Positions 9,212-35,134 of a stretch of 36,182 nucleotides of DNA are shown here, piece by piece. The notes under the pieces were generated by a model. It ran no database searches and was not told the DNA's origin. It was given only the letters and a program-made list of their open reading frames with translations. The stretch spans positions 1 through 36,182 of the IMG/VR virus record IMGVR_UViG_3300011422_000012; one strand, 5' to 3'. A program made the translations under genes and the position numbers. Position 1 is the first letter of the stretch, and each line of letters begins with the position of its first letter. This DNA comes from a virus (Duplodnaviria > Caudoviricetes).

Positions 9212-9224
9212 GTGGCAAACCGGG
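9212..9224 (+). promoter_or_regulatory. leader motif copy 1 (variant GTGGCAAACCGGG) upstream of portal
   Basis: One extra A versus the other copies; lies in the loop of CTAGGCC/GGCCTAG hairpin (9203-9229); T is 23 nt before GTG 9236. Confidence 0.65.
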
Positions 9225-9235
9225 CCTAGGGGAGA

Positions 9236-11407
9236 GTGGCAGGCCAAGAACAGCTTCCGCTAGTTACCGAGACCCGCGAGGTAGCGCGCATCGCGTCGAC
9301 CCCGACGCTTGTCCGCCGCGCCGCACGCCTCCCCATCGGCCCTTCCTCGCAGGGCTTCCTCACGTTCTCGAACTTCCAGCCCGCCGAGGAGTCCTTCGCC
9401 CTCTACGAGCGCTTGGGCTGGATCTACGCCGCCGTGCGGCGCGTCGCCCTCGACATCTCCGGGCTCCCGCGCAAGGTCTTCAGCGGGAAGGGCAAGCAGG
9501 AGCACCCGATCGAGTCGGGGCCGGTGGTGGAGCTCCTCGACAACCCGAACCCGCTGATGACGTTCTCGGACATCGTCGAGATCCAGGTTAGCTACCTCGA
9601 AACTCTCGGCGCCGCCTACCTGCTCTTTGACTCTCGGGTGCCCGCTATCTGGCCGCTCCGCCCCGACCGCGTCCAGCCGATCATTTCACCGCGCGCAGAG
9701 CTCGAAGGCTGGGAGTACCGGGCGAGCGAGAAGGTGCTCAAGCTCCCGCCCGAGGCGGTGATCCCGTCGACGTATTTGAACCTGCGCGAGCCGATCGGCG
9801 GAAGGATGTCGCCGCTCCAACCCGTCTCAATCCCCGCGCAGGCCATGATTGCCTCGATGCTCTGGAACGTGCGGTTCTTCGAGCGCGGCGCGGCTCCATC
9901 GGGCTTCCTGACGACCGACCAGGCGCTCACGGACGTCGAGTTCGAGCGCGTGATTGCGGACGTCGAGGAGAACTGGCAGGGCTCGCAGAACGCGCACGGC
10001 GTTCCGATCCTCGACAAGGGGATCAAGTTCGAGCAGCTCGAAGCGAACCACAAGGACATGGGATTCGAGGGGCTGCTCCGGCTCTCGCGCGAGGAAGTGC
10101 TCGGGGCGATGGGTGTACCGCCCGCAATCGTCGGCGACTTTAAGCAGGCGAACTACGCGCAAGTCGAGATGCAGTACAAGAGCTATTGGCGGCTCAAGGT
10201 CATGCCGATTGCTCGGCGCCTCGAAGAGACGTACTCGCGATTCATGCTCCGGCAATTGGCACCCCAGGAGCGCATGCGGTTCGCGTTCGTGTTCTCGGGT
10301 GTCGAGGCATTGCAGGAGGACCGGAACGCAAAGGCCGCGCGCGAAGAGATCATGATTCGGACGGGGCTGCGGAACCGTGCCGAGCTCCGCGAGGCGGATG
10401 GGCTCAAGCCCTACGAGGGCGCAGACGAGTTCCTGCTCGCGCAAGGGCTCGTACCCGCGCGCCCGAAGGCTGAATTGGATGCTCGCGAAAAGGAGCGGGC
10501 GGAGGCCGCTCGGCCCCCCGGCGGTGGTGCTCCGCCCGCTCCCGGCAAGAAGGCGGGCGATGAGATCGAGACTCGCGCGAGCGACGAGCGCCGGGCGGCG
10601 ATCATTCGCCGTTTCGATGCGAAGCTCCGCCGCGCCGAAGTCCGCATGGCCGACTACTGGCAAGATGTGCTTTTCAGGCTCGAGCGCGAGGTCATTAGTC
10701 GGGTTCGGCAGCGGCCGCCAGTTTTAACGGGTCGCACCCCCGATGAGGAACCTCCGCTTGGGCCTATCCCCCTGCCGTTCCCGCTCGAGACGTATCTCCC
10801 CGAGTCCGCCGAGTACATCGCCGCGGTACAGACGGGACACGCCGCAATCTTCCGCCGGCTCATTGCCGAGTTCGGTGGCGAAGCGCTCGACGAGATCGGC
10901 TCCGAGTTCGCATTCGACGTCGGCACCCCGCGCGTGATTGAGACGATCATCCATGACGAGGAGCAGATCGGACGCTCGACTGCGCGGTTGCTCGATGACG
11001 TGAAGGAGGAGCTCGAGGCGGGGCTGAACCAGGGCGAGAGCATAGGCGACATGGCGAAGCGCATTCGCCAGGCGGTGGCGGATTCGGCGGAGACCCCGGC
11101 GCGGGGCGGCTCCTACGTGCGCTCGGAACGGATCGCGCGCACGGAGGCTCACTCGGCGGCGGGCTTCGCACGGATGGAGGGGTACCGACAAACCGGCGTC
11201 GAGGAGCATCAATGGTCCTCCTCGCACGATCAGTTCGTGCGCGATAGCCACAAGGACATGGACGAGAACCAAGAGACGGTGCGCGTCGGCGAGCCCTTCT
11301 CGAACGGCTGCACGTACCCGGGTGATGACGCGGGCGGGGCGGGCGAGGTGATCAACTGCCGGTGCTTGACGCTGCCCGTGGCGCAGGCGATGCGGGTGGC
11401 AGCGTGA
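9236..11407 (+). CDS. HK97-type portal protein fused to C-terminal MuF (phage head morphogenesis) domain
   Basis: Portal: WIYAAVRRVA, LLDNPNPLMT, WPLRPDRV, FFERGAAPSG, GVPPAIVG...NYA. MuF: ERIARTE...W....D..VRDSH...GEPFSNG..YPGD...EVINCRC. GGGGAG SD. Confidence 0.9.
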   Translation: MAGQEQLPLVTETREVARIASTPTLVRRAARLPIGPSSQGFLTFSNFQPAEESFALYERLGWIYAAVRRVALDISGLPRKVFSGKGKQEHPIESGPVVELLDNPNPLMTFSDIVEIQVSYLETLGAAYLLFDSRVPAIWPLRPDRVQPIISPRAELEGWEYRASEKVLKLPPEAVIPSTYLNLREPIGGRMSPLQPVSIPAQAMIASMLWNVRFFERGAAPSGFLTTDQALTDVEFERVIADVEENWQGSQNAHGVPILDKGIKFEQLEANHKDMGFEGLLRLSREEVLGAMGVPPAIVGDFKQANYAQVEMQYKSYWRLKVMPIARRLEETYSRFMLRQLAPQERMRFAFVFSGVEALQEDRNAKAAREEIMIRTGLRNRAELREADGLKPYEGADEFLLAQGLVPARPKAELDAREKERAEAARPPGGGAPPAPGKKAGDEIETRASDERRAAIIRRFDAKLRRAEVRMADYWQDVLFRLEREVISRVRQRPPVLTGRTPDEEPPLGPIPLPFPLETYLPESAEYIAAVQTGHAAIFRRLIAEFGGEALDEIGSEFAFDVGTPRVIETIIHDEEQIGRSTARLLDDVKEELEAGLNQGESIGDMAKRIRQAVADSAETPARGGSYVRSERIARTEAHSAAGFARMEGYRQTGVEEHQWSSSHDQFVRDSHKDMDENQETVRVGEPFSNGCTYPGDDAGGAGEVINCRCLTLPVAQAMRVAA

Positions 11408-12903
11408 CGCTCATCGTCTCGCCGCCCAAGGCGAACCTTGAGGGCTGGTGGAAATGTGACGAGGCTCAGGGCCCGGGCGCTGGATCCACGCGCGATGACT
11501 CCTGGATTAACCAGCTCCACTTGAGCCCGCTGCCGAATGCCGTTGCGCAGTCGACCACGATCAAGCGGCTCACGATCGGGTCCGCGGGGCTTTTTGCCAC
11601 CGATGGCCTGGTGCGTACGGACTCGACGCTAACGTCCACCTTCCCCGGCAAGAATGGCGGCAGCACGTCAGCTTTCACGGCGGGATGCTTCGTGCATCCG
11701 GCAGCGGCCGGCGCGGGCTCTGATTACATCATGTGCAAGGATGGGAGTTTCCTTCTTTACTATGCCTATACCGGGACCAAGATATCGGCGCAGATCGGCG
11801 GGTTGACCGCGATTGCATCCAATGCCGTCAATCCGGTCTCGAGCTGGTATTGCGCGGCCATCCGCTGGGACGGCGCCGAGTTCTCGCTCTGGATTGCTGG
11901 CGTCAAGCAAACAGCCGTCACGGCTGTTGTCTCGATGGTGCATAACGCGAATCCATTCGTGATCGGCGCCCAGGATAGTGCGGGGACGAACTTCCTGAAC
12001 GGTTACGTGAACGATGCGTTCGTGTTCTCGCGGGCACTTTCCGACGCCGAGATGCGGAAAATCTCGATGGTGGGGCCAACCGCTTTCTTCACGCCGATCA
12101 TGGGGCTTGTCGGTTCGTGGCCGATGGATGAGGCGGCGGGATCGACGCGTTATGACATCAGCCCCGGATTTACGCATCTTGTGCAAAACGGCACCGTGCC
12201 GCAGCAAACGGGGATTTTCAAAGAGGGCACCGCGTCCGCCGGCAAGTTCTCGACGACGCCGAGTTGTCTTAAGTGTCTAGACGTTGACCTTCCTAGTCGA
12301 TTCCCCGCGAAGAACGGGGACGCGGCGATCGAGTGGACGATCGGTGCCTGGCTATACCAGGACACGACCACGACCACATGCGTGTTCAAGAAGGGCACGG
12401 CGATTGAGTTGCAATGGGGTAACCCGGCGCCGAATAAATACGGGCTGCTTTTCAACAATACGCTGTTTCTGGTTTCGGCGGACCAGGCGATTCAGACGTG
12501 GGTGCATGTGGTGGCGCGCTGGCGTGGCGAGGATGACAACCTCCTAGATTTCATTATCAACGGCGTCAAGCAGGTGGGCGGTACTGGGCAGACCACGAAC
12601 CCTGGCAATGTGTCTGACCTGTTCGTCGGCGCGCAGTCGGCAGCCAACGCGCTCCCGATGCAGGGCTATATTGACGAAGTATTCGTCTTCAACCGCGCGC
12701 TGGCTGACGAGGAAATCCTTGACGTCTATAACGGTGGATTGAGCAGTTTCGTGACGCCTTCGTTTGGGAGCGGAATGATCCAGGGCGCTCCGGCACATGG
12801 CAAAAAGATTCCCAAGCCCAACCTGAAATACCCCGCGCGCGGGCAGCGCACGGGCGGCGTCAGCGGTGGCGGGCGCAGAAAGGGATCAGGGGCGAGATGG
12901 TGA
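11404..12903 (+). CDS. virion-associated protein with two LamG/ConA-like jelly-roll domains
   Basis: Internal duplication: LEGWWKCDE...GYVNDAFVFSRALSDAEM and LVGSWPMDE...GYIDEVFVFNRALADEEI; GTGA-coupled to portal. Confidence 0.85.
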   Translation: MTLIVSPPKANLEGWWKCDEAQGPGAGSTRDDSWINQLHLSPLPNAVAQSTTIKRLTIGSAGLFATDGLVRTDSTLTSTFPGKNGGSTSAFTAGCFVHPAAAGAGSDYIMCKDGSFLLYYAYTGTKISAQIGGLTAIASNAVNPVSSWYCAAIRWDGAEFSLWIAGVKQTAVTAVVSMVHNANPFVIGAQDSAGTNFLNGYVNDAFVFSRALSDAEMRKISMVGPTAFFTPIMGLVGSWPMDEAAGSTRYDISPGFTHLVQNGTVPQQTGIFKEGTASAGKFSTTPSCLKCLDVDLPSRFPAKNGDAAIEWTIGAWLYQDTTTTTCVFKKGTAIELQWGNPAPNKYGLLFNNTLFLVSADQAIQTWVHVVARWRGEDDNLLDFIINGVKQVGGTGQTTNPGNVSDLFVGAQSAANALPMQGYIDEVFVFNRALADEEILDVYNGGLSSFVTPSFGSGMIQGAPAHGKKIPKPNLKYPARGQRTGGVSGGGRRKGSGARW

Positions 12904-14389: not shown

Positions 14390-14399
14390 TGGCAACCGG
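14390..14399 (+). promoter_or_regulatory. leader motif copy 2 (TGGCAACCGG) upstream of major capsid
   Basis: Exact 10-mer, 24 nt before GTG 14414. Confidence 0.75.
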
Positions 14400-14413
14400 A
14401 GACAGGCCAATGC

Positions 14414-15949
14414 GTGGAAACCCCGATCGAGGAGCGCCTGGTAAAGATCCAGCGCGACATTTCGGAACAATGGGACGCGGAGAAGAAGAAGATCGGCGCC
14501 GATCTCACTGAGCGATATACACGAGCGGAAGTCGACGAGCGACTCGGCCAGCTCAAATCCTCACTCGACGAGGATCTGAAGCGGAAGGTCGAGGAGCTAG
14601 TCAAGGCGTCGCACGAGGACCCGCGCTATCGCGTGGACCTGGTGCCGCGTCGTGAGTTCTCGTTCTACCGCTCGATGGCGAAGACGTCTACGACCCAGGA
14701 AGACTCGTGGGCGATCTATCGCGACTTCCTGACGTCGCACTCGGACCAGAAGGACGTCGAGCGCTTCCAGTACCTTTCCTCGCGCCTTGCGATTATCAGC
14801 CTGGGCGCGCGGCTATCCGGCAAGACCAACTACGTCGCCGCTGCGTCGAAGAACATCCAAGTCCGGAAGTGGTGGCACGAGTATCGCCAGCTCCAGATGG
14901 AGTTCTTCCCGGACGAGTTCTATCAGCGCGCCTTCGACACGCAAGCTATCAACGGGGCGCAGGGTGAATCGCTCTGGGTGCCCGACGTGCTCGGCGCCGA
15001 CCTCATGCGCTACTTGGAGATCCGCGGCGCGGTGCTTCCGAACATCCGCAGCTTCCAGCTTCCGGCGGCTCTCTGGCGCTGCCCGATCACCCTGGCTGCT
15101 GGCAAGGCGCACGGGTTCCGCGAAGTCGTGGCGGCTCCGACGTCTTACCCCGATCCTACCGGGGCGCAGATGTATGACGACGCGAGCGCGCCGTTCGGTC
15201 GTGTCACGTTCGACGTGGCCCGCTTCCGGTCGGTGATCATCTCGACTCGTGAGTTCATCGAAGAGTCAATCATCCCGATGATCGAGTGGACCATCGGCGA
15301 AGCAATGGACGGGATCCGGCGCGCCGCAGAAGACACGTTCTTCAACGGCGACAAGACCTCGCCCGGTATCGACTCCGAAACTTCCTACGCCGCGGCTTCG
15401 CCCACCGGCCGGGTCGACAACAAGATCCTGTGGAACGGCGTGCGCGCGAATGCTGCGGCTTCGGGTGTGACGCTCGTGCTGGGTGCTGGAAGTGGCGACT
15501 TCCCGGATTTCGTGCTCGCAAAGCAGCGGTGCGGCCGGTACGCAATCGAGCCGAGCGACTGGCTCTGGTGCTGCTCGCCGGCTTCGTACCTCGATCTGCT
15601 CGACGTGGGTGAGTTCGCGACTGTTGAGAAGATTGGCGAGCGGGCAACTGTCGTCACCGGGCAGGTTGGCGCGATCCTCGGCTCGCCGGTGGTCGTATCC
15701 GAGTACGTGCCCTCGAACGTCTCGGCGTCTGGCTACCAGACGACCTCGACCAACAACACCACGATGGTCATTGGATTCCACCGGCCGAGCTACTGGCTCG
15801 GGAACTGGCGCGGGATCACGACTGAGACGGATCGCCAGGCGATCGTCAACCAGGACTACGTCTACGCCTGGTACTCGGCGGACCTGCAAAAGATGCGGGC
15901 TGCTAGCGAGAAGACCGAGAACGTGATCATCAACATCGCAGTGGCCTAG
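14414..15949 (+). CDS. major capsid protein (HK97 fold) with N-terminal coiled-coil/delta region
   Basis: Position after protease; WVPDVLGADLM, ISTREFIEES, EDTFFNGD, GAILGSPVVVSEYVP; first in-frame start after stop at 14369. Confidence 0.9.
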   Translation: METPIEERLVKIQRDISEQWDAEKKKIGADLTERYTRAEVDERLGQLKSSLDEDLKRKVEELVKASHEDPRYRVDLVPRREFSFYRSMAKTSTTQEDSWAIYRDFLTSHSDQKDVERFQYLSSRLAIISLGARLSGKTNYVAAASKNIQVRKWWHEYRQLQMEFFPDEFYQRAFDTQAINGAQGESLWVPDVLGADLMRYLEIRGAVLPNIRSFQLPAALWRCPITLAAGKAHGFREVVAAPTSYPDPTGAQMYDDASAPFGRVTFDVARFRSVIISTREFIEESIIPMIEWTIGEAMDGIRRAAEDTFFNGDKTSPGIDSETSYAAASPTGRVDNKILWNGVRANAAASGVTLVLGAGSGDFPDFVLAKQRCGRYAIEPSDWLWCCSPASYLDLLDVGEFATVEKIGERATVVTGQVGAILGSPVVVSEYVPSNVSASGYQTTSTNNTTMVIGFHRPSYWLGNWRGITTETDRQAIVNQDYVYAWYSADLQKMRAASEKTENVIINIAVA

Positions 15950-15951
15950 TT

Positions 15952-16147
15952 AGCGGCGGAAAGTGAGGCGCATGAATGCATGGTCGTTTGGAGCAGGAGC
16001 GAAGGGGGGTTCTTTTCCGGTATGCCACACCCTCAGGTGTACCACCACACATCCAAGACAGCCGAATGACCTTTCATAAGGCTGGGAGGATAGGTGGCGC
16101 CTTTCGCTCTCTCTGCGGCCATGCTTCATGCGCCTCCTTCCATTGCT
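15952..16147 (+). ncRNA. putative ~195-nt structured non-coding RNA
   Basis: Nested pairing by eye: 15965-76/16125-36 (12 bp perfect), 15978-86/16116-24, 15996-16006/16100-10, inner 16059-63/16080-84; many G-U pairs favour the + strand; contains antisense copy of the leader motif at 16012-16028. Confidence 0.7.
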
Positions 16148-19673: not shown

Positions 19674-19689
19674 GTGGCAACCGGGAAAG
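19674..19689 (+). promoter_or_regulatory. leader motif copy 3 (GTGGCAACCGGGAAAG) upstream of tail tube
   Basis: Exact 10-mer core; T19675 is 24 nt before GTG 19699; longest complementarity to 16012-16028. Confidence 0.75.
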
Positions 19690-19698
19690 TGACATGCA

Positions 19699-20862
19699 GT
19701 GGGTTCGCCTTCAGGACAGTATTCGCGGCTGTATTTCCGCAAGGAAGCCGTGCCCGGCACCTTCGCGGCGTTTTCGACAACGGCGGGGCTCAAGCTCTAT
19801 CAAGAGGAGTTTCAGCCGCGGCCGACCAAGACGCCGATCCGCTACCAGGAGAACAAGGGCGGCGTGATCTTCGACAACACGGACTTTACCCCGGGGCCGC
19901 AGGGCGTTACCGGGACGCTCCGCTTTGCGCTCCGCTACTCCGGCGTTCACGCCGTGATGATGGGGCACGCGCTCGGGCAGTTAGGAACGACCGGGCCGTC
20001 GGGCTCGCCGGCTGCGTACACGCATACAGCAGACGGCTCGGCGGGCACCCCGCCGGTACCTGGTAGATACAACTCGCTTTCCTTCCTGCATCAGCGGCCA
20101 ATCAATGATGCGGGAACGGTCTTCCGGCAAACGGAACTGCTCGGGGCGAAAATCGGGAGGATGCGGCTGACTCAGAGCGTCTCGCAGCCGTTCATCATTT
20201 GCGAGATGGACATCGTTGCGCAGGAAGCTAAGCATAACACGACTGCGGCAACGTCCCTTCCGCCTGATACGGGTACCGGATTTGCGCCGCACGAGGCGCT
20301 AGTCCAGACGTCGCACATCGTTGGCGCGAGCAATAATTGCTTTAGTTTCCAGTCGCGGTTAGGCACAACGACATCGACGGCAGTCTTCTTGCAACTCGAA
20401 GAATGGACGGTTGAGCTCAACAACTTCCCGGAGCAGCTCGGCGTGATCTCGAACATCAATCGGCAGTCGAACCCGGCGCGTGGTCAGGTGCGTGAGGTGT
20501 CGGGTTCGTTCGTGGTTGAGCAGGACGCGACGATTGACGAGATCGAGAAGGCATTCGGGAACACGGCGGCCGATCCGAACTCTGAAATCGCGATGACGTG
20601 GGCCTACGAGAATCCGGCGCAGATTCAGGAAGACTTTTCGATCCAGGTTTCTTCGGCGTACATCACGCAGCCCGAGCGCGGGACGTCTGGGACTGGACCG
20701 CAGCGGCGGCGTTACAACTTCACCGCGCACGGTGCTGGACCGAACGGAAACTGGCCGGGACCAACCCCGTTGAGGGTGACTGTCAAGAGCCTGATTGAAT
20801 TACCACCTTCCTCGGTGGATGGCCCCAAGTACGGAGATCACGTCACGGGCAACGGCGGCTAG
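19699..20862 (+). CDS. major tail (tube) protein
   Basis: SG..SRLYFRKE..PGT start, VTGTLRF, GAKIGRMRLT, WTVELNN, REVSGSF; precedes chaperone and tape measure. Confidence 0.8.
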   Translation: MGSPSGQYSRLYFRKEAVPGTFAAFSTTAGLKLYQEEFQPRPTKTPIRYQENKGGVIFDNTDFTPGPQGVTGTLRFALRYSGVHAVMMGHALGQLGTTGPSGSPAAYTHTADGSAGTPPVPGRYNSLSFLHQRPINDAGTVFRQTELLGAKIGRMRLTQSVSQPFIICEMDIVAQEAKHNTTAATSLPPDTGTGFAPHEALVQTSHIVGASNNCFSFQSRLGTTTSTAVFLQLEEWTVELNNFPEQLGVISNINRQSNPARGQVREVSGSFVVEQDATIDEIEKAFGNTAADPNSEIAMTWAYENPAQIQEDFSIQVSSAYITQPERGTSGTGPQRRRYNFTAHGAGPNGNWPGPTPLRVTVKSLIELPPSSVDGPKYGDHVTGNGG

Positions 20863-21407: not shown

Positions 21408-21579
21408 GATTCTCAACATGGAGGCGGGGGAGGTCCTCGCCGAGTTTGAGCTTGAGCGGATCGCCCGGGAGGAAGTGCTGGGCGATCTCCACGAGCGGAT
21501 GATCACGGCGCCCGAGGGTAGCTACTCGACGCGCGCGCTCGTGGTCGAGTTGCTTTTGAACGACATCATGGAGCGATAG
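21325..21579 (+). CDS. tail assembly chaperone extension (GT-like), probably reached by +1 frameshift
   Basis: +1 frame open 21292-21579, protein-like (RRLLSLSRATGRRLTEILNMEAGEVLAEFELE...), its TAG overlaps the tape-measure GTG; TCC TTT CGT at 21321-21329. Confidence 0.6.
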   Translation, partial: FVRAGRIRPATARRLLSLSRATGRRLTEILNMEAGEVLAEFELERIAREEVLGDLHERMITAPEGSYSTRALVVELLLNDIMER

Positions 21580-24500
21580 TGGCGGAACTGCTCGACATCG
21601 AAGTAAGGGTCAACTCGTCCGAGGGCGAGGCGTCCTTCGATCGGATGCGCGCGTCGATTGCGCGCATGGAGGAGGCGCTCAGCACCGGGCGGTCGGACCA
21701 GTTAATCAGTGCGACGGGTCGGGCTGCGGCGAACCTGGGGCGCGAGTCGAGTTCCGCCGGGCGCGGTGTTGAGCAGCTTGCGCAGTCGCTGAACACGGCC
21801 GCCCGCGGGGCGTCGAGCTTCGAGCGTGAGGCGGAGAAGTCCGCGCGCGCAGCGACAAAGCTCGAGCAAGAGATCGCGAAGGCGGGGGCGCAGGCGCGCG
21901 GTATCGGCCAGGCCGTGCCCGCGGTTACTGCCCTTGGTAGCGCGATTACCGGGCTCGTCACGGCCGCCGCCGGCTTCGTCTCTATTCGCCAGCTATTCGC
22001 GGCATTCGGTGAAGCCGATCGTGCCTTCGAGATGGCGCGCGCCTTCGACCTCTCGACCTCGAAGCTGATTCTCTGGAACCAGACGGCGAAGCAGTTCGGG
22101 GCGGATGCGACCGATGTCCAACAGGCGATGCGTGGGGTCTCGCAGTCGGTAGCCGATGCGCTCCGAGACCCCGGCGGGCAAGCCGCTCAGCGCTTCCGCG
22201 AACTCAAGATCGACGTCGATGCGCTCCGGGGCGTGTCGATTGACGAGGTGCTGCTACGCATCTCGGACGGGCTCTCGCAGGTTGACGACGCGGCTTCACG
22301 TACTGGCATTGCCGTGGACCTGCTCCACGTTCGGAATGCGAATCTGTTCTCGCTCCTGCGAGGGGGACGGAAGGAGATCGAGGCCACGATCGCGGAGCTC
22401 GCGAAGCTCGGCGTGATCTCGGACGAGGATGCGGCGGCCGCGGATCGGTTCGGGGACTCGATCGGTCGGACGCAACTCGCGATTACGGCGATGGTGTTGC
22501 ATGCGGCTCCGGCCTTCGCGACGCTCGCCGAGGCTATCGAGGGGATGACCGTCAAGACGGCCAACTTCCTCAAGGAATTGAACGAGGCGCGGAATGCCAA
22601 CGCGCCCCGCCAGCAACTTGAGACCGCGGCCGGTAAGAAGATCGAGACCCAGGTTGAGGTGATCGGCGAGGAGCAGGTCGAGCAACTCAAGACCCTGCTC
22701 GCGAGCCTCCCGCAAGCGCTGGCCGTAAGGATCGAGGGGATGGAGGATGCGGAGGACCTGGTCGCGGTCCTCGAGCGCATCCAGAAGCAGGGGCTCGGGG
22801 TCCGGGACCTCTTCGGCGACCTCGATACCGAGTTTCGGGAGAACCGCCAGGCGGACGCGCAGCGCCAGCGGCGGCAGCGGATCGAGGCGCTCCCGCCCGA
22901 GGCGCAGGTGGACGTGCGCCAGGAGACGCAGCGGCGGACCCAGGAGTTTGCCCAGGGACTGCCGCCGGCCGAGCGCCGGCAGGCGGCAACTGCCGCATCT
23001 CTCGGGCTCGACAACAAGGTTGACCAACAGCGGGCACGGATCGAGGCCGAGGTGCTCGCCGAGAAGGAGAAGCAGCTCGAGATCGAGAAGGCCAAGAGCG
23101 CCAAGAGCCCGCGCGAGGCCGCGATCGCGGAGCGGATCATTCAGCTCCAAGCGGAGGAGGAGCGACTTCGGGTCGACCGGATCGCGAAGCTCCGCCTGCA
23201 CGGCCCGGAGACCAAGCCGCCACCGGTACCACCTCCGGTGCCGCGCGCGCCGATTGAGCAGTTGTTGCAGCTTCGCCCAGGGCGGGACGAGGAGACGCGG
23301 CGCCGGAACCAGGAGATCCTCGACGAGCGGGAACGACCGCAGAACCTCCCGATCGACACGCACCTCACCCGCGACCGTCGTGGCGAGGTCACGTCTACGC
23401 AAATCGGCGAGATCCAGACCGATCGCGAGCGCGAGGAAGCTCGCCGGAAGTCGGCCGCTGCCCTTCGCCCCCAGGAGGTCGAGGAGCAGGCGGGGGCGCT
23501 GACCAAGCTACGGGACGTGATCTCCGATCTCGGGACGATCGCCAGCGCGACCAAGACCCGGATTGATGACCTGATCGTTGGCATGGGCTCGCTCGTCACC
23601 TCCCTGCTCAAGCTCGTGCAAGACCTCTCCCGGGCGCGGCCTGGCGTGGGTGGCGGCGACGTCACCGGGGAGATCGTGGAGACCGTGGACCTCGCCCGGG
23701 CGATCGGGCGGGAGGTCGGGGATTCGGTGCTGCCGCTCGTCGAGGCGGGGCAGAACGTGGCCGGCGCCGGATTCCGGGAGGACCAGCCGACCGCGGAGGA
23801 ACTCCGGGGCGTTGATCAGCCGATCGACCTCTCCCGGCAGTCGATTTTCCAGCTCGCCGATGCGGTCCAGCCTGGCACCGAGGAGGCTTCCCCGCTGCCC
23901 CAGGCGCAGCGATTGGCGGAGCGGGTGGCCCCACTACCGCCGCCGGCCGCGCAAGCCCCGGTAGCTCTCACCACGCGCTCTGTGCGCGCCCTGGGGGAGG
24001 AGATTCGGACGGAGGCGGAGGTCGCCGCGGCGGTGCCCCGCCCCGAGGCCGAGACGAGAAAGCTGGCGGAGGCGCTACGACCCGCGGCCCAACCCGAGGC
24101 ACGCGCCGGTATCCCCGCGGTTGTCCAGCGCCCCGCCGGCCCAGCAGTTGGCCCCTTGCAGGAGCTCCGAGCCACGGCCGCGGGCCGTGAGCGTGAGACG
24201 GGGCGCGTGCGTGAGTCGTTCGGCCCGGCAGAGAGAGCGGAGCAGGCTGCGACGGCACGATCTGAGCAGCTTGGCCGTGAGCTTGAGCCGGTAGTCGAAC
24301 GGCTCCGCGCGCCGCTTGAGGGGCAAGTCAAGCCCGAAGCGGTGCAAGAACTCCCCGGCATTCTTGCACCGGAGCGGCCGGCTCTACCGGAGCTACCGGA
24401 TCTCCGCCTCAAGCCCCAGAAGGTGCAACTCGAGGCGCCGGAGGTCCAGCTACCGCCGGCCAGGCGCGTGCCGGTGGAGCCCGAGCGGATTCGCCCGGCC

Positions 24501-26198
24501 CTCCTGCGCGAGCCTCCCGCCCCGCGCGAGGCGCCGCCAGTCGTGGAGCGCCCGGTGGCGCGGCCCGTTGCACGCCCGGCCGAGCCCGCCCCGCCGGCGC
24601 TCGAGCGACTGCGCCCGGCCGCCCAGGCGCCCACTGTGCGGGATCTGCCCAAGCCCCCGGCAGCGCCCGCCCAGGTGGAGCGCCCCAGGCTTCTCCGGGA
24701 ACCGCCGGAGCCGCCGACACCGCCCGCCCGGCCTGAAGTGGCGGCGCGCGAGATCGTCAGCCAGCTCCGCCCAGTGTCCAGGGAATTGTCCGATGTCCCG
24801 CGCACGATCCAGCGCCTGGGCGCGCCGCGCCCGGCACCCGTGACCGAGCTCGGGGCGCTGCTTCGCCGGGAGGAGCCTACGGGCCGGCTTCGGCCGATCT
24901 CGGCGCGGCAGTTCCTCGAAACCCAACCGCAGCTTGCGCCCGCCCGCACGGCTCTCCCGACTGCTACGGCTTCGGCGGGGCCAGCGGCGGGCGCCTCCCT
25001 TCGCGACCGTGGCGCCGCCGACATCCTGACACTGCCGATCCGGGCCTTCCTTCGCCCCGTTCGGGAGGCGGTGGAAGCCGTCGCCGGGCCTGTAGGCCGG
25101 GCCGTCTCCCGCCCCGTACAGGCAGTGGCCCGCGTCATCCGCCCGGTGGCCGAGGCCGTGGGAGCAGCAGCGGAGCCGGTCTCTCGCGCCCTCACGGCGC
25201 CGATCCGCGCGCTCGCCACCGTCGCCCGGCCCGTTGTCTCGGCTGCCGCAACGGTGGCGCGTCCGGTGGCTGAGGCCGTGACCGCCGTCGCCCGACCGGT
25301 GGGTCGAGCGGTGGAGACCGTGGCTCGCCCATTCGTGAAGGACTTCGAGACGATCGGGAGAGGCGCGGCCGCCCCCTTCCGCGCGGTCGGGCGGCTCTTC
25401 CGGGATGAGGCGGCACCGATCGGGCGCGCCGCGGGCGTGCCGTTGCAGGGGCCACAGACCGCCGCCCAGGCGGCAGGCGGGTTCTTCGGGAGCACGATCG
25501 CCCCGGCCATCAAGATCATATCCACGGCGCTCCCGGTATTTAGCCTTATCACTTCGTTTTTGGGGTCGATCTCGTCGGGGAGGCAGGAGCGCCGCCAGCG
25601 CGAGGCGCAGGAGTTCCAGCGGCAGGTGCAGGAAGGCGGGCCGCAGCTCGTGGCCATCCGGGAGCGCGAGGCCGCCCAGCAGCGGCGCCGGGAGACGGAG
25701 CAGGCGGCCCCGCCCACGCCGCTTCTCCGTCCCCAGCGCGGGCCGGAGCTGGCGCCGCTCGTGGCGACCCTCCGCGGGGCCGCCACCATCCCCGCCCCGG
25801 AGCGTGAGCGCGAGTTCGCGACCGTCGCTCCGGGACGCGCCCCGGAGGAGCCGCTACGGCGCGCGGCTGCCATTACCAGCCCCGCCCCGGAGGAGCCATT
25901 GCGGCGCTCGGCTGCGATTGCCTCCCTCGCCCGGGAGGAGCAGCCACTCAAGGCAGCCGACCTCATCCGGCAGATCAGCAATGCCGCCAGGAGCGAGCCC
26001 GCCCCGACGAGCCAAGCGCAGCGCACTCAGGCCGCGGAGGAGATCCGGCGCCGCGACCAGTTCACCCAGCGCCAGGGCAACAAGATCGACCTCGCCATTA
26101 CGGCGCTCGATGCTAAGGGCGTGGTTGACCTGTTCTCCTCCGAGAAGGGCAGGGACGCGCGCAAGTACCTCGCCGAGTTCGTGGGGTTGGGGGACTGA
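21579..26198 (+). CDS. tape measure protein
   Basis: 1539 aa, Ala/Arg/Glu-rich helical; N-terminal LDIEVRVNS..G; 11-residue repeats; follows chaperones. Confidence 0.85.
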   Translation: MAELLDIEVRVNSSEGEASFDRMRASIARMEEALSTGRSDQLISATGRAAANLGRESSSAGRGVEQLAQSLNTAARGASSFEREAEKSARAATKLEQEIAKAGAQARGIGQAVPAVTALGSAITGLVTAAAGFVSIRQLFAAFGEADRAFEMARAFDLSTSKLILWNQTAKQFGADATDVQQAMRGVSQSVADALRDPGGQAAQRFRELKIDVDALRGVSIDEVLLRISDGLSQVDDAASRTGIAVDLLHVRNANLFSLLRGGRKEIEATIAELAKLGVISDEDAAAADRFGDSIGRTQLAITAMVLHAAPAFATLAEAIEGMTVKTANFLKELNEARNANAPRQQLETAAGKKIETQVEVIGEEQVEQLKTLLASLPQALAVRIEGMEDAEDLVAVLERIQKQGLGVRDLFGDLDTEFRENRQADAQRQRRQRIEALPPEAQVDVRQETQRRTQEFAQGLPPAERRQAATAASLGLDNKVDQQRARIEAEVLAEKEKQLEIEKAKSAKSPREAAIAERIIQLQAEEERLRVDRIAKLRLHGPETKPPPVPPPVPRAPIEQLLQLRPGRDEETRRRNQEILDERERPQNLPIDTHLTRDRRGEVTSTQIGEIQTDREREEARRKSAAALRPQEVEEQAGALTKLRDVISDLGTIASATKTRIDDLIVGMGSLVTSLLKLVQDLSRARPGVGGGDVTGEIVETVDLARAIGREVGDSVLPLVEAGQNVAGAGFREDQPTAEELRGVDQPIDLSRQSIFQLADAVQPGTEEASPLPQAQRLAERVAPLPPPAAQAPVALTTRSVRALGEEIRTEAEVAAAVPRPEAETRKLAEALRPAAQPEARAGIPAVVQRPAGPAVGPLQELRATAAGRERETGRVRESFGPAERAEQAATARSEQLGRELEPVVERLRAPLEGQVKPEAVQELPGILAPERPALPELPDLRLKPQKVQLEAPEVQLPPARRVPVEPERIRPALLREPPAPREAPPVVERPVARPVARPAEPAPPALERLRPAAQAPTVRDLPKPPAAPAQVERPRLLREPPEPPTPPARPEVAAREIVSQLRPVSRELSDVPRTIQRLGAPRPAPVTELGALLRREEPTGRLRPISARQFLETQPQLAPARTALPTATASAGPAAGASLRDRGAADILTLPIRAFLRPVREAVEAVAGPVGRAVSRPVQAVARVIRPVAEAVGAAAEPVSRALTAPIRALATVARPVVSAAATVARPVAEAVTAVARPVGRAVETVARPFVKDFETIGRGAAAPFRAVGRLFRDEAAPIGRAAGVPLQGPQTAAQAAGGFFGSTIAPAIKIISTALPVFSLITSFLGSISSGRQERRQREAQEFQRQVQEGGPQLVAIREREAAQQRRRETEQAAPPTPLLRPQRGPELAPLVATLRGAATIPAPEREREFATVAPGRAPEEPLRRAAAITSPAPEEPLRRSAAIASLAREEQPLKAADLIRQISNAARSEPAPTSQAQRTQAAEEIRRRDQFTQRQGNKIDLAITALDAKGVVDLFSSEKGRDARKYLAEFVGLGD
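25050..25400 (+). repeat. imperfect 33-bp (11-aa) repeats in tape measure
   Basis: RPVREAVEAVA, GPVGRAVSRPV, RPVAEAVGAAA, RPVAEAVTAVA, RPVGRAVETVA; boundaries approximate. Confidence 0.7.
25839..25950 (+). repeat. imperfect 45-bp (15-aa) repeat in tape measure
   Basis: GCCCCGGAGGAGCC at 25839 and 25884, degenerate copy at 25929 (APEEPLRRAAAITSP / APEEPLRRSAAIASL / AREEQPL). Confidence 0.8.
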
Positions 26199-30005: not shown

Positions 30006-30017
30006 GTGGCAACCGGG
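30006..30017 (+). promoter_or_regulatory. leader motif copy 4 (GTGGCAACCGGG)
   Basis: Exact 10-mer core in loop of CAGCCT/GGGCTG stem (29999-30020); T30007 is 24 nt before in-frame TTG 30031. Confidence 0.7.
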
Positions 30018-30021
30018 CTGG

Positions 30022-30981
30022 ATGGAGGAATTGCCCAGCCTAACTGACGCAAGCCGCGACCCCATAACTTCACAACCCTCGCGGGTTACATCGAGCGGTG
30101 CGAGCGCCATAGCGCCGCAGTCCATTCTTTTTGGTGACTCCTTCCATGGCGCGGTGCTCGACGAAGATGGGCGCTGGACGCAGAACGCCGGCACAAGCGG
30201 GGATGCGTCTGTTGCCGATGGCCAGCTCTTGCTCGCCACGGGCGCGACTGGCGGATTTATTACGCTCACTTCCAAACCGAAGTTCGCACTTTATTCGGGC
30301 GCCGAACTCCTCTTTACCGCCATCGTGCGACTGGCGAGCGCCCCCATCTCGGGAAGCGTGCGGAATATCGGCCTTCAGGGCGTGGGCGTCAACGATCAGC
30401 TCTACTTCAACATCACAGACACCGCTTGGCAGGTAAAGATTACTACCGGCCCTGGCACCGTCATTCCATGGAACATCGGCAGCCCGCGGGCCGACGCGCT
30501 CGCGTGGATGAAGCTACAGATCCGAGCGACCAAGAGCCGCGCGCAGTTCATCATCAACGATAGCCCGATCTATCTCTACAACTCGATCGGCCAGCAGGAA
30601 CCGCTGCACCACGCCTCGCTCTGCACTGCGTTCCTGGAATCCTCGGATGGTACATCGGCTGGCGATAATTGGATGTATGTCTCCGAGGTCTCCGTCGTGC
30701 GCTCGTTCGAGTCCTGGCCGGCGACGGTCATGCGGAAGCGCATCACCGCGGACGGCATCATCGCGCGCGGCCCGTGCTGGTATCTCGGCATGAAGAAGGG
30801 GAGCGGTACCGGCACCTGCTTCATCCACGACGACGTCACCGCAGGCGCCAGCACCAAGATCGACGAATGGACAGGAGTTGATTTTGACAAGCAACCCACC
30901 GGGCCGATTGAGTGCCAAACGGGCATTTACGCCGACGTCAGCAGCACCGAGCCCGTCTACATCGACTACGCCCTCGCCTAA
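30022..30981 (+). CDS. beta-sandwich virion protein (start ATG 30022 or TTG 30031)
   Basis: Lectin-like beta-rich region plus small C-terminal domain (ITADGIIARGP...IHDD...GIYADV). Confidence 0.6.
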   Translation: MEELPSLTDASRDPITSQPSRVTSSGASAIAPQSILFGDSFHGAVLDEDGRWTQNAGTSGDASVADGQLLLATGATGGFITLTSKPKFALYSGAELLFTAIVRLASAPISGSVRNIGLQGVGVNDQLYFNITDTAWQVKITTGPGTVIPWNIGSPRADALAWMKLQIRATKSRAQFIINDSPIYLYNSIGQQEPLHHASLCTAFLESSDGTSAGDNWMYVSEVSVVRSFESWPATVMRKRITADGIIARGPCWYLGMKKGSGTGTCFIHDDVTAGASTKIDEWTGVDFDKQPTGPIECQTGIYADVSSTEPVYIDYALA

Positions 30982-31048
30982 CGGTGGAGGGGGAACCATT
31001 AACCCATTCAAGGGGCTAACGCTCCCTTGTAAACACGGAGATGAAAAC

Positions 31049-31261: not shown

Positions 31262-31263
31262 CA

Positions 31264-32064
31264 GTGATGGACCTCATCCTCCGCCACTTCGAGAAGGTGC
31301 ACATGGAGGTTCCGCCTCCGCCCGAGACATACGACGGCTTTGTTTACGGTCACTTCGGTGACTACGAGACCGAGGTCCGATCGCTGGTCGCGGGCGGTAA
31401 GCGCTGTTACCGCTACTTCAACGTGCTCTCGATGCCGGCGACGGGATGGTCCGATCCCTGGTTCGATTACGTCAACTCGACGGTGGTGCCTCTCCAAGTC
31501 GGCGGCCGCTTCGCCTACCTCCCTTCAGCGTGGGAGGTAGGCGGGCGGAAGCTGTGGGATTGGGGGATGTTCTCGCCCCACCGGGTACGCGGACTCGCGA
31601 AGAAGGTGGCCGAACTCGCTGACGGCAACGGCATTTTTCTTGACCAGTTCTGGATGGAGCCGCGGGACTGGATGATGTCGGCGCGCACGCCATCGGGTGA
31701 TATGGCGGCGCTGTATATGGACTTCCCGCAGACGAAGTGGTTTCGTTATACGGCGAACATCACATACTTCGTCGACATGCTCCGCACGATGGTAGCGCCT
31801 CAGATAGTGCTCGTGAACGGAGACCGACTCGCCCCGGGGCCGATGCATCTCGAATGGCCGCACTGGTACGACCTGGCTGGCGAGTTGACTAGGTGGAACG
31901 AGTCGAATCATGCGGTACTCGCCCCGTTCACGGATGTGGACTGGTCAGTCGATTGGGCGCTCAACGCCTGGAAGCGTTCGCATAAGTGGATTGCGTTCAC
32001 CGGGCGCGCAGATCTCACGGAGCTGGCTTATGCGCGAGCACACGCGCAGCGGATTGCACCATGA
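31264..32064 (+). CDS. putative glycoside-hydrolase-like protein, paralog of 17737-18810
   Basis: ILRHF, YDGFV, GKRCYRYF, GIFLDQFW, IVLVNG co-linear with the earlier protein. Confidence 0.55.
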   Translation: MMDLILRHFEKVHMEVPPPPETYDGFVYGHFGDYETEVRSLVAGGKRCYRYFNVLSMPATGWSDPWFDYVNSTVVPLQVGGRFAYLPSAWEVGGRKLWDWGMFSPHRVRGLAKKVAELADGNGIFLDQFWMEPRDWMMSARTPSGDMAALYMDFPQTKWFRYTANITYFVDMLRTMVAPQIVLVNGDRLAPGPMHLEWPHWYDLAGELTRWNESNHAVLAPFTDVDWSVDWALNAWKRSHKWIAFTGRADLTELAYARAHAQRIAP

Positions 32065-32597
32065 GGTGCTTTGTCTCGGCCGGGCATGGACCCAAGGCGG
32101 GGGGACAGTACGACCCCGGCGCAGATCCACCAGGGCCGGGGGAGGAGCACGCGATAGCCGAGGAGATCGCGCGCGAGATGGCGCACGCGATGGTGCTGGT
32201 TGAGCCGCACGTGGTCCCGCGCGGGAACCTCAAGACGAGGATTGCCTACGTCAACCGCTGGTCCCGCCCCGGGGACGTGGCGGTGGAGGTGCATTTGAAC
32301 TCGGGGACGCCGGACGTCGCGGGGTGTGAAGTGTATTTCTTCTCGCTCGAGGCACGGCGATTCGCGGCGGAGATGCACGCCTCGCTCATGAAGATTGGTC
32401 GCGCACCGCGCGGGGTGAAGGTGGACGCATCGTCGCAGCATCCGGCCGGGCTCGCGTGGTGCCGTCAGACGAAGCCCTGGGCGGCGCTCGTGGAGGTTGC
32501 CTTCCTCACGAACGCCGAGGAGCTCAAGTGGCTGCTCGGCGGTGGAGCGTCACTCGCGGGGAAGGCTCTCGCGAAGGGAGTGGATTCCTGGCCATGA
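32061..32597 (+). CDS. endolysin, N-acetylmuramoyl-L-alanine amidase (Amidase_3)
   Basis: Zn ligands and catalytic Glu: SAGHG...DPGA...EEH, EVHLNS...GCEVY, ALVEVAFLTN; catalytic domain only. Confidence 0.92.
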   Translation: MRCFVSAGHGPKAGGQYDPGADPPGPGEEHAIAEEIAREMAHAMVLVEPHVVPRGNLKTRIAYVNRWSRPGDVAVEVHLNSGTPDVAGCEVYFFSLEARRFAAEMHASLMKIGRAPRGVKVDASSQHPAGLAWCRQTKPWAALVEVAFLTNAEELKWLLGGGASLAGKALAKGVDSWP

Positions 32598-32932
32598 ACG
32601 ACGGCGACGTTATCCGAATGCGCGATTACGTGGATCTGAGATTCAGCGACCTCAAGGAGGCGATAGCGCGTCGCGACGTAATGAACGAGGAGCGGATCAA
32701 GCTCGCGGCTGATGAAATCGCTCGGCGCCTGGACGTACTAAACCACGCTCACGAGGACGCGGTTGAGGCGCAGGCCGCCACCGTTCCGCGCGAAATCTTC
32801 GAGCGGGCGATGGCCGAGTTTAACAAGCGGATCGTCAACCTAGAGCGACTGGCCTGGGGCTTAACGGCGCTTGGCGCCGTCTTTGTTATCGCGATTCAGT
32901 TTGCCGTAAGGCTTGTCAACACTCACAGATAG
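32594..32932 (+). CDS. coiled-coil protein with C-terminal TM helix (lysis-cassette membrane protein)
   Basis: RIVNLERLAWGLTALGAVFVIAIQFAV; ATGA-coupled to amidase. Confidence 0.65.
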   Translation: MNDGDVIRMRDYVDLRFSDLKEAIARRDVMNEERIKLAADEIARRLDVLNHAHEDAVEAQAATVPREIFERAMAEFNKRIVNLERLAWGLTALGAVFVIAIQFAVRLVNTHR

Positions 32933-32944
32933 GGAGAACGAACG

Positions 32945-33907
32945 ATGAAGCGCTCTTGGTTCTTGTTGGGAGTGTTCATGCTCTTGGTCCCGCTCGCCGC
33001 ACGTGCCGACTTCAGGGACGTGACGCTCGGTACGATGAGCGAGTTTCAGCAGTGCCTGATGGCGTCGGAGGATTTTACGCCCGAGCAGTTGCTGGCAATC
33101 AGTCAGTGCTTCGAGGACACGTTCACGGAGCCAATCATAGATCCCCCGCCCCCGGACCCGGAGCCGGAGGAGCCGCCGCCGACTGGCTTTGCCCCATGCA
33201 GTGGGAACCAGAGCCAAGCAGGCGTGGACGGGTGGGACGACTGGTGTACGGACGAATCACGAAACTTCCGCACGCTAGCCGGCGGCGTTCTCGGCATGAA
33301 CTCCAACGCCGAGGCCGCGCGCAATCGCTTTCCGTGCGTCAACAAGGGTGTCGCTCCACCCACGACCGGAAGCAACCGTGTCGTGATGACCTGCGATCTC
33401 AAGTTTCCCGGGGACTGGCTTCAGGGCATCAGTCTCGGCGGGCAGCACCTATTCAAGATCGGCGAGGGGCCGATCGCGTGCCGGACTGGCGGGACGACCG
33501 AGCCCGATCACCTGCGCTTTGACTTCGGGTGCTTCAACGTGACGAACGCGGACGGCTCGACTGGCAACGGTTTCAAGGACGGATTTCGCGTGCTCGTCTA
33601 TTGGAAGGTGGCAGGGCAGACCCACAAGGAAACGTGGTTTTCATCCTCGACCAAAATGCCGGACGTGTTCAAGCCGGACGTGTGGACACCCTTCCGCGCC
33701 GACTGCAAGTACGACCCGTCGACCGGGCGTGCTGACCTGACCATGACAATCGGTGGGATTACGCGCACAACGTCTCAGATACTTGAAAAAGATGGAGTCG
33801 TTGGCAAGGGTATCACGAAGAAGATCGGCGACTCGATCGGCTTCGGTAACGTGGATCAGCGCGAGGGTGACCTAGAGATTCGCAACCTTCAATACAAGTC
33901 GAACTGA
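32945..33907 (+). CDS. secreted protein (signal peptide, Pro-rich linker, beta-jelly-roll-like domain)
   Basis: MKRSWFLLGVFMLLVPLAARA-DF signal with AxA site; DPPPPDPEPEEPPP linker; multiple Cys; GGAG SD. Confidence 0.7.
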   Translation: MKRSWFLLGVFMLLVPLAARADFRDVTLGTMSEFQQCLMASEDFTPEQLLAISQCFEDTFTEPIIDPPPPDPEPEEPPPTGFAPCSGNQSQAGVDGWDDWCTDESRNFRTLAGGVLGMNSNAEAARNRFPCVNKGVAPPTTGSNRVVMTCDLKFPGDWLQGISLGGQHLFKIGEGPIACRTGGTTEPDHLRFDFGCFNVTNADGSTGNGFKDGFRVLVYWKVAGQTHKETWFSSSTKMPDVFKPDVWTPFRADCKYDPSTGRADLTMTIGGITRTTSQILEKDGVVGKGITKKIGDSIGFGNVDQREGDLEIRNLQYKSN

Positions 33908-33918
33908 AAGGAATAACC

Positions 33919-34425
33919 ATGGACGACCTGCTGTACTTTCCGGCGTGGTTGCTCGGGGCGATCCCCATCGCCATCACGCTAATGAAAATCTGGGTGCCGA
34001 CGCTCTGGCGCGAGGTCCTGGCCGCGGTCATCGCGGCAGTGGCGACTGTGTACGTGGTCGTTACCACGCCGCTCACGTTGCAAGCCGGGCTCCACGAGGG
34101 CATGGCCCTGTTCGTCATCCTCACGGGTACGCGCGCGGCTATCGCCGGCGCGACGAACATCGCCAAGGCCAAGGCTGCTGGCGTGCCGATGATAACGACG
34201 GATGGAAAGACGATCCGGGACGCTCAGAAGCTGAGCATTCTGGCGCTGTTCCTCGTCGGTGCGGTATTCATTGGGCGCGCATGGGCTCAGGATCCTGACT
34301 CATCGCTCGTGATGGTGGCGGGGCCGGCCCACGAAGTCGCTAAGGAGACTGGCCGCGTATGGGTCATCGTGATTTCGCAGGTGATCTCGAAGTTCTTCGA
34401 CTTCGCGTTTAGGAAGTGGCTCTAA
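33919..34425 (+). CDS. multi-pass membrane protein, holin candidate
   Basis: Three to four hydrophobic segments; AAGGA SD; near amidase. Confidence 0.6.
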   Translation: MDDLLYFPAWLLGAIPIAITLMKIWVPTLWREVLAAVIAAVATVYVVVTTPLTLQAGLHEGMALFVILTGTRAAIAGATNIAKAKAAGVPMITTDGKTIRDAQKLSILALFLVGAVFIGRAWAQDPDSSLVMVAGPAHEVAKETGRVWVIVISQVISKFFDFAFRKWL

Positions 34426-34448
34426 CCTGCCACTAGAAAGGGGGTGCG

Positions 34449-34979
34449 ATGGAACAGGATCGGGGGCGCAGGGATAGAGACCATGAGTTCAAGGAAGCTC
34501 ATCTGCGCACCCTGAAAGGCATAGAGAAGCATTTTGCCGAGCTGGTTGAAATTTTCTCCTCGCCTTCGCATAGCAAGGCGGGGCTGGGGTTCTTTGTCCG
34601 AGAGATCCAAGGAAAGAGGTTTACGATGATTACTCGACCGCCGATCGTCATGCTCGATGTTGAGCGCGTGCTGGTGTCAGTGGCCCCCCGAAAGCCCAAC
34701 GGTGATCCCGATCCGACCGTACAGGTTGCCTGGGCGAGTTCGGACCCCGCGCAGGTGGGGGTCGAAGTCTTGCCCGAGCACGAGGGTCTCGATGCCGAGG
34801 GGCTCCCGATCACGATCCCTGGAACCCACGAGGCTTGGCTCTTGACGCCCCTCGATCGCGGGGCAGCGGATGTCACGATTTCTGCCCCGGGGTACGAGAC
34901 GACACTTCAGCCGTTGAGCTACGAGCCCGGGGTTCCGGGACAGCTCAACGTTTCGGTAGGTACTCCCGTACCTGACTAA
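34449..34979 (+). CDS. Ig-like (BIG2-type) domain protein
   Basis: VLVSVAP...VAWASSDPAQVGV...GAADVTISA; alternative start ATG 34626. Confidence 0.6.
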   Translation: MEQDRGRRDRDHEFKEAHLRTLKGIEKHFAELVEIFSSPSHSKAGLGFFVREIQGKRFTMITRPPIVMLDVERVLVSVAPRKPNGDPDPTVQVAWASSDPAQVGVEVLPEHEGLDAEGLPITIPGTHEAWLLTPLDRGAADVTISAPGYETTLQPLSYEPGVPGQLNVSVGTPVPD

Positions 34980-35076
34980 CTAAGAACCACCGTCTACCGC
35001 GGCGTGCGGTCCCCGGGATCTGGTGAACCCGGCCCGCCCGAGCGCCCCGACACGCTCGGCTCTGGATGACCTCCCC

Positions 35077-35101
35077 GGGGGCGCCGCGGCCCCTCTTTTT
35101 T
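35077..35101 (+). terminator. putative intrinsic terminator
   Basis: GGGGGC-gccgcg-GCCCCT stem followed by CTTTTTT. Confidence 0.55.
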
Positions 35102-35118
35102 CGCGGGATAGACACTTC

Positions 35119-35134
35119 GTGGCAACCGGAGAAA
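35119..35134 (+). promoter_or_regulatory. leader motif copy 5 (GTGGCAACCGGAGAAA)
   Basis: Exact 10-mer core in loop of CTTCG/CGGAG stem; T35120 is 24 nt before GTG 35144. Confidence 0.75.

Follow-up and report, generated by a model that had tools for sequence, protein, structure and literature searches.

Leader tags and a proposed complementary guide RNA in a tailed phage

The 36,182-nt record IMGVR_UViG_3300011422_000012 of a tailed phage (Caudoviricetes), analyzed over its full length and called the window below, carries a short leader tag, TGGCAACCGG, before the start codons of several late genes. One reverse-complement copy of this tag, termed the guide, lies at 16011-16028 inside a folded RNA just 3' of the capsid stop codon. 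The tag system is conserved and is explained by this partner, which the initial annotation of the window had missed. That guide and tag pair with each other is strongly indicated by the sequences, taken across all explanations considered here. We further propose, with a probability of about 0.55, that the phage-encoded guide RNA switches on in-frame initiation at the tagged genes.

Exact copies of the tag are present at 14390, 19675, 30007 and 35120, every one on the plus strand, and a variant, TGGCAAACCGG, at 9213 ahead of the portal gene. The distance from the first T of the tag to the in-frame start is 24 nt, or 23 nt for the portal, as the initial annotation had described for the four GTG/TTG starts and for the variant. 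Dinucleotide shuffles gave a mean of 0.16 exact copies and a maximum of 2, and 0 of 100 shuffles reached four. No site with exactly one mismatch was detected on either strand, while 40 sites with up to two mismatches compare with 42.5 expected by chance. All five tags are located between genes (upstream stops at 9083, 14371, 19660, 29997 and 34979), which confirms that the window holds no coding copies. In the relatives the picture is less strict: the distance is 22-25 nt, and the exact nine-letter motif also occurs inside coding sequence, with one of five sense copies in genome G002 and two of six in G005, so that the motif alone is not diagnostic in some relatives.

Four of the five assigned start codons are supported by orthologues. 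The capsid GTG is backed by alignment, the tube GTG at 19699 lines up with ATG starts, and the orthologue of the 35144 gene in G008 begins with ATG and has the same N-terminus. TTG 30031 lines up with the first residue of four orthologues, which makes ATG 30022 less likely as a start and backs the choice on which the spacing of copy 4 had been said to depend. The tagged genes had been taken for five structural genes with non-ATG starts, coding for high-copy virion proteins. Portal and capsid are confirmed by family matches, the tube is assigned by position and relatives (it sits between genes with the inferred roles of tail terminator and chaperone/tape measure), the 30031 gene has no family match and the 35144 gene belongs to a family of unknown function. 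The restriction to high-copy virion genes was not upheld, since G003 tags a non-structural-looking gene and the capsid genes of G008 and G009 are untagged. Non-ATG starts are typical of tagged genes, although not required.

Hairpins around the tags had also been proposed. Copies 1 and 4 fold as described, whereas copy 5 forms a different 9-bp stem (35113-35121 with 35138-35146) that includes the start codon. Opening energies around the five tagged starts are not distinctive among 36 listed starts, and these varying local stems are therefore not the key to the element. The proposal of an RNA-level translational element tied to the start codon is supported; because the guide changes together with the tag, we place its key in the complementary guide elsewhere in the genome. 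A leader peptide beginning at the motif (GTG-GCA-ACC) was rejected, as the preceding base and the frame vary.

The guide lies in a conserved structured RNA

The RNA at 15958-16141 is far more stable than expected (z -8.0; 0 of 200 shuffles equally stable). Across five sequences all 22 pairs of its closing stem are kept. A conservative register set by eye gives at least four compensatory changes and one position with three pair types; an automated count gave 10 of 22, which a one-step register shift lowers, and the lower figure is trusted. The guide region folds better on the plus than on the minus strand in 6 of 7 genomes. A search of Rfam gave no match at the gathering score in four sources, the best hit by E-value reaching 16.9 bits against a cut-off of 100.

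A single minus-strand tag copy is likewise found right after the capsid stop in G003, G004, G005 and G007, and the reverse copy has one extra base in the window, G002 and G006. Guide hairpins begin directly after stop codons (all within about 30 nt) in the window, G003, G005, G008 and G009, and the gene 5' of the guide differs by tag class, being capsid, adaptor or neck. A consistent minus-strand gene start after the reverse copies is absent; four of six have none. The seed of the guide is predicted to be unpaired at 0.61-0.93 in G005, G008 and G009, and the cost of opening it ranges from 1.6 to 5.3 kcal/mol across the genomes.

Tag and guide change together in relatives

Capsid relatives with 94-64% identity keep the tag ahead of portal, capsid and tube. 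Additional tagged genes are the protease in G005 and the above-mentioned gene in G003, whose N-terminus resembles a radical-SAM enzyme. For the portal gene of G005 (L021, 857 region), homology points to a probable ATC start 13 nt past the tag core; translation could instead begin at an in-frame GTG located at the tag.

The more distant genomes G008 and G009 (37% capsid identity) carry different tags ahead of largely the same genes. A GGRCAGGGCA-type tag precedes six genes in G008, one of them with only the seven-letter core, and a GAGGTACGG-type tag precedes three genes in G009; a fourth copy there, at ordinary Shine-Dalgarno spacing, was left out of the tagged set. Each of these tags was found first by an unguided k-mer count, in which the tag is the top match in the window, G002, G003, G004, G005, G008 and G009, and not in the short G007. 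Both genomes have exactly one antisense long-form copy, located between genes in the loop at the tip of an irregular hairpin. The probability that such a copy falls within the spacers by chance is roughly 0.001-0.008 for each genome, based on spacer lengths judged by eye. Since relatives swap tag and complement together, an RNA of the phage likely pairs with these leaders.

A scan of the collection for the tag plus spacer pattern returned nine loci, seven from this phage group and two chance coding matches, and a k-mer count revealed no repeated tag in nine distant capsid loci (L035-L043; at most 32% identity, 2-14 kb). A motif match in distant tube genes proved to be their own coding start, Met-Ala-Thr. 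In G005 (L014, 15174-15190) the tag of the tube gene runs over the final codons of the upstream gene, which ends in EVATG, where the window orthologue ends in EVSTG; this comparison hints that a gene end can give rise to a tag. In G009 (L034, 11123-13329) there are two tandem tail-tube paralogues, of which only the first is tagged and the second overlaps the first's stop codon. In the complete genome G013, a hairpin of similar build (L073, reverse strand, 5254-5277) occupies the position of the G008 guide; its loop matches one leader in full (10 nt) and another in part, and it may be a relic or precursor.

Predicted pairing and anatomy of the tagged starts

For statistics we used 22 distinct tagged leaders from five genomes, omitting near-duplicates from G001, G002, G004, G006 and G007 and the G003 tube, and 30 untagged starts, 29 of them in the binding test, where one was dropped as too near the locus end. 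With the guide as probe against both strands of the window, the five leaders rank within the top 10 of 7232 genome windows, and one of the ten is the guide's own complement. They are also the top five of the 36 listed starts. The more G+C-rich probes of G003-G005 place only some leaders in the top 12, and none in G005. The predicted guide-tag pairing is 8-17 bp long. With opening costs included, net binding at or below -5 kcal/mol was obtained for 20 of 22 tagged versus 4 of 29 untagged leaders, and at all 22 tagged leaders the own guide binds better than every guide of another class.

The tagged starts are unusual. The tag core ends 12-16 nt before the start, with 14 nt in 12 of the 22. A properly spaced Shine-Dalgarno sequence of at most -3 kcal/mol (calculated with the canonical anti-Shine-Dalgarno sequence) is present at 2/22 tagged versus 19/30 untagged starts, non-ATG codons are used at 16/22 versus 2/30, and an out-of-frame ATG within 16 nt occurs at 14/22 versus 1/30; the untagged starts were hand-picked in a way that favours ATG and Shine-Dalgarno sites, so the contrast is inflated. 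Shuffled spacers contain an out-of-frame ATG in a mean of 3.2 cases (maximum 9 in 2000). This decoy ATG is mostly served by the purine-rich end of the tag itself, at 5-8 nt spacing. In-frame stops in the spacers (12/22 versus 7/30) stay within the shuffle maximum. Orthologues follow the same division: tagged capsid genes are without a Shine-Dalgarno sequence (0 to -0.8; window, G003, G005), whereas untagged ones have one (-3.7 to -5.3; G008, G009, G013), and the protease values are -1.7 and -0.4 when tagged against -3.3, -8.6 and -5.4 when untagged. A programmed frameshift from the decoy ATG was rejected, because decoys occupy either of the wrong frames and differ in this even among capsid orthologues (-4, -5).

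A model for guide-dependent initiation

Because the leaders, the capsid's included, appear near-untranslatable by default and keep a fixed register, we favour activation by the guide. Without the guide, ribosomes would go to the decoy ATG or fail to load. The folded RNA behind the capsid gene would pair with leader positions of about -25 to -10, acting either as part of the long late transcript or once a double-strand nuclease has released it. Once bound, it would hide the Shine-Dalgarno-like end of the tag from the ribosome, and the bulky guide-tag duplex would set the register, placing the codon 12-16 nt further 3' in the P site.

Several findings, besides the choice of comparison starts, weigh against activation. 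Its direction, on rather than off, is read only from the weak default starts, and a duplex at -25 to -10 would overlap with the footprint of the ribosome, a region in which small RNAs mostly act as repressors according to the account consulted (PMC13501541). In the window the fold predicts a paired guide core (unpaired 0.05, opening cost 5.3 kcal/mol), in G002-G004 a partly paired one (unpaired 0.24-0.47), the G008 guide folds no better than shuffles (z -0.7), and no sequence common to the guide hairpins hints at a ribosome-binding part. After opening costs the window tags 1 and 4 bind weakly, with -0.7 and -2.7. The conserved 5' end of the G009 tag is not matched by its guide. Over all classes the wobble test gave no bias (13 G-U versus 12 A-C), with ratios of 10:1 in the window's tag class, 3:3 in G008 and 0:8 in G009. 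A tag predicted for G013 was not seen: among its 53 open reading frames (ORFs) there is no repeated tag, and the genome, with 31-44% identity in the compared late proteins, uses ATG starts with ordinary Shine-Dalgarno sites. There are three independent tag classes only, as tagged orthologues are not independent. Contigs of one metatranscriptome span tag 2 and the guide, but may be DNA carry-over. Classic unmasking of a leader by an anti-antisense RNA is not supported: opening energies and their relief are not distinctive among the 36 starts, and 20 of 22 leaders have no spaced Shine-Dalgarno sequence to be freed. A Shine-Dalgarno sequence supplied in trans by the 5' flank of the guide is plausible only in the window and G005 and weak in G008 and G009.

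Alternative explanations

The same pairing could have the opposite sign, with the guide covering the ribosome footprint as a late feedback brake or for control of stoichiometry. All guide-tag pairing evidence fits repression, the duplex would hide the only Shine-Dalgarno-like bases, repression near the ribosome-binding site is described as the common mode of bacterial small RNAs (PMC13501541), and the analogous loop in cluster K1 phages is anti-Shine-Dalgarno-like. We nevertheless regard it as rather unlikely, since unbound leaders with a weak start, no spaced Shine-Dalgarno sequence and a decoy ATG already look near-untranslatable, even for the capsid, tagless orthologues regain ordinary Shine-Dalgarno sites, and a repressor has no need of a 12-16 nt register. 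Also unlikely, and slightly more so, is a tag bound by a phage protein, either as an RNA operator like that of Mu Com-mom or as a DNA late-promoter element giving leaderless transcripts, in which case the reverse copy would be an inverted unit or decoy site. A fixed distance to the start suits a leaderless promoter, a terminator-like hairpin (35077-35094) precedes tag 5, the part of the G009 tag that its guide leaves unmatched is conserved, a minus-strand TTG follows the reverse copy by 16 nt in G003 and G004, and several small unannotated proteins are present. This reading, however, requires one protein family to have moved between three unrelated sequences, every time accompanied by one reverse copy in a hairpin, and a distinct -35 element lies ahead of the portal tag. 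TTG starts, among them those of the capsid genes in G003, G004 and G007, suit leaderless initiation poorly. The 59 scanned proteins (39 from the window and 20 ORFs of at least 80 aa from the early region of G001) include no member of a sigma factor, RNA polymerase or RNA-guided effector family. Individual promoter types were rejected as well. For sigma-54 the -12 GC is absent at the required place in all five copies, the consensus being GG and GC with a ten-base distance, and TANNNT is likewise missing where needed. An extracytoplasmic function (ECF) -35 with GTG as -10 fails because the proteins begin at that codon, and T4-type promoters in hairpins are not supported by the undistinctive opening energies.

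Guides are also known to direct events at a measured distance. Cleavage just before the start, leaving a message with no leader, or an R-loop fixing the transcription start as with dCas12f-sigmaE, would fit a guide-defined fixed distance, which is typical of such systems as described (PMC13472631), and removal of the leader would take out the decoy ATG as well. We consider this improbable: TnpB, Cas12f, sigma or similar families are missing from the scanned proteins, the pairing covers just 8-17 bp, the spacer varies by 4 nt and the starts are mostly GTG or TTG. Still less probable is a purely structural pairing that serves RNA stability, long-range folding or the hand-over of ribosomes from the upstream stop. 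The guide hairpins do start right after stop codons, but in a compact genome a hairpin between genes will always come after a stop, and the upstream gene varies by class. Of these explanations, activation by the guide is the one we favour.

Genome context and further features

The coordinates of the features are listed below.

Features of the window and the evidence on which they were assigned
Feature	Position	Strand	Evidence or remark
Leader tag 1, variant with extra A	9213..9223	+	within local hairpin 9203-9229
Portal gene, fused Mu-F-like domain, GTG start	9236..11407	+	family match
Leader tag 2; decoy ATG out of frame at 14410	14390..14399	+	exact copy
Major capsid gene, GTG start	14414..15949	+	family match and orthologue alignment
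Structured RNA 3' of capsid stop, carrying the guide: long closing stem and inner arms	15958..16141	+	fold and conservation
Guide segment: tag in reverse complement plus one extra base, reaching into the purine-rich 3' flank of the tags	16011..16028	+	
Leader tag 3; decoy ATG out of frame at 19694	19675..19684	+	exact copy
Probable tail tube gene, GTG start	19699..20862	+	position, homology of relatives, start alignment; no family match
Leader tag 4; spacer contains in-frame ATG 30022	30007..30016	+	exact copy
Conserved tail-region gene, TTG start; no family match	30031..30981	+	carries a tag in each of the three tag classes
Leader tag 5; decoy ATGs out of frame at 35134 and 35139	35120..35129	+	exact copy
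PHROG 644 gene (family of unknown function), GTG start	35144..35563	+	family match
Candidate late promoter: palindrome 9148-9167 abutting -35 TTGACA 9168-9173	9148..9174	+	function inferred

The window has a G+C content of 64% and covers most of a tailed phage genome, in the order replication and small genes, terminase, portal, protease, capsid, neck, tail and amidase. G001 is nearly the same sequence, circularly permuted, and contributes about 10 kb of additional early region, which gives a full genome of about 46 kb. Five DNA sequencing runs contained at least half of the sampled words, each of them labelled freshwater sediment, and one may be the run of origin; runs with a share below 0.2 were excluded from this habitat reading. 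Searches of prokaryote genomes and of cultured phages revealed no relative, the latter yielding distant capsid matches at most, and the host search led to viral clusters only. A methyltransferase and a glycosyltransferase gene (5619-7475) lie directly 5' of the terminase and might form a virion or DNA modification module. The tape-measure-like ORF (21579-26198) codes for 1539 aa, compared with 854-1296 aa in orthologues, and its second half is long, proline/alanine-rich and high in G+C.

The sequence TATTGACAA with an upstream palindrome is shared by the window, G003, G004 and G005. Its -35 element lies 40 nt upstream of tag 1, so tag 1 would be located within the 5' leader of the transcript. 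A sigma-70 scan did not list this candidate promoter, whose poor -10 predicts dependence on an activator. A LexA-like helix-turn-helix gene (3007-3225), common to the window and G005, is a candidate binder. A second conserved structured RNA was observed at 34997-35089 in the window, at about 12533-12625 of L018 and at about 6813-6913 of L045. It occurs in the window, G002 and G008 and forms a multi-arm fold with an 8-bp closing stem, one arm loop showing an anti-Shine-Dalgarno-like ACCUCC, and in the window a U-run follows right before tag 5. It gave no Rfam or tRNA match.

Relation to known systems and implications

As with trans-encoded base-pairing RNAs, the guide is a separate locus complementary to the leaders, and guide and targets co-vary. 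The closest parallels are DsrA/RprA with rpoS and RyhB with shiA, in which a separate RNA pairs with the leader 5' of the start (PMC13501541), and here too the pairing is predicted to raise translation. As described in that source, those RNAs free an existing Shine-Dalgarno sequence from an inhibitory stem, with no fixed distance. In contrast, the phage starts are without a spaced Shine-Dalgarno sequence, keep a register of 12-16 nt, share one tag among several late genes, and have tag and guide replaced wholesale between relatives. The system can be regarded as a variant of regulation by base-pairing phage RNAs, and would be categorically new if the positioning model holds. Full-text literature searches, with thin coverage of subscription journals, turned up no description of it.

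The start-associated sequence (SAS) of cluster K mycobacteriophages is likewise a phage-specific repeat in one orientation tied to start codons (PMC3203893, PMC11373665, PMC12699233). As portrayed there, it is a 13-bp consensus that holds AGGAG, lies 3-7 nt before mostly ATG starts and marks non-structural genes. The phage tag differs in its unrelated sequence and its 12-16 nt spacer. One SAS in opposite orientation was noted in four cluster K1 phages by Pope et al. (2011), whose Fig. S3 lists reverse sites and whose account of it assigns no role (PMC3203893), and reports of 2024-2025 still call the role of SAS unknown or unverified in the passages concerned (PMC11373665, PMC12699233). We counted 16 sense and one antisense copy each in Adephagia and Anaya, and 19 and 11 sense copies with zero antisense copies in Pixie and TM4. 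The reverse copy (JF704105 58682-58694 in Adephagia, L056; JF704106 59870-59882 in Anaya, L057) occupies a 10-nt loop at the tip of a long hairpin, which lies between genes 92 and 93; for Anaya, the longest window folds differently.

The C4 RNA of P1 and P7 is an immunity repressor; it folds into a cloverleaf with two loops that pair to the phage's own transcripts, and its targets vary along with the loops. The guide of the window targets late-gene starts instead. Neither the c4 and c4-a1b1 motifs (RF01695; PMC2864571) nor any other Rfam family matched the guide RNA. The mom gene of Mu has a GUG start and a hairpin. As proposed here for the guide, its translation is activated by a phage-encoded factor, at a late gene with a weak start (PMC6483171). 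Com, however, is a zinc-finger protein with one target, and no Com family match was found in the scanned proteins. In dCas12f-sigmaE a guide RNA fixes the initiation point at a set distance, as the phage guide would, but this requires dCas12f and a sigma factor, neither seen in the scanned phage proteins, and acts on DNA (PMC13472631).

As for the purpose, we can only speculate. The guide might form a threshold switch under which the main virion proteins stay off until late RNA has accumulated. Portal, capsid and tube proteins are detected by host sensors, and the delay of such proteins is a second, equally speculative purpose. More tentatively than activation itself, the system might be a natural orthogonal initiation code, in which a phage RNA replaces the pairing of Shine-Dalgarno and 16S sequences and docks ribosomes at a fixed register, the decoy ATG is the default off state, and each lineage has its own rewritten password of tag and guide; the SAS elements of cluster K would then be a second, culturable instance of phage starts addressed by a guide.

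These results give the unexplained start-associated repeats of phage genomes, as a class, a partner and a proposed mechanism. As Adephagia and Anaya share the layout, the SAS question, which has stood open since 2011, can be put to a direct test in a laboratory host. If the guide activates, an RNA of 70-190 nt would pick the start codon and the reading frame for several genes together, and such a selection by one RNA, if true, would be unlike known bacterial small RNAs. The three natural tag-guide pairs would in that case be ready-made orthogonal switches.

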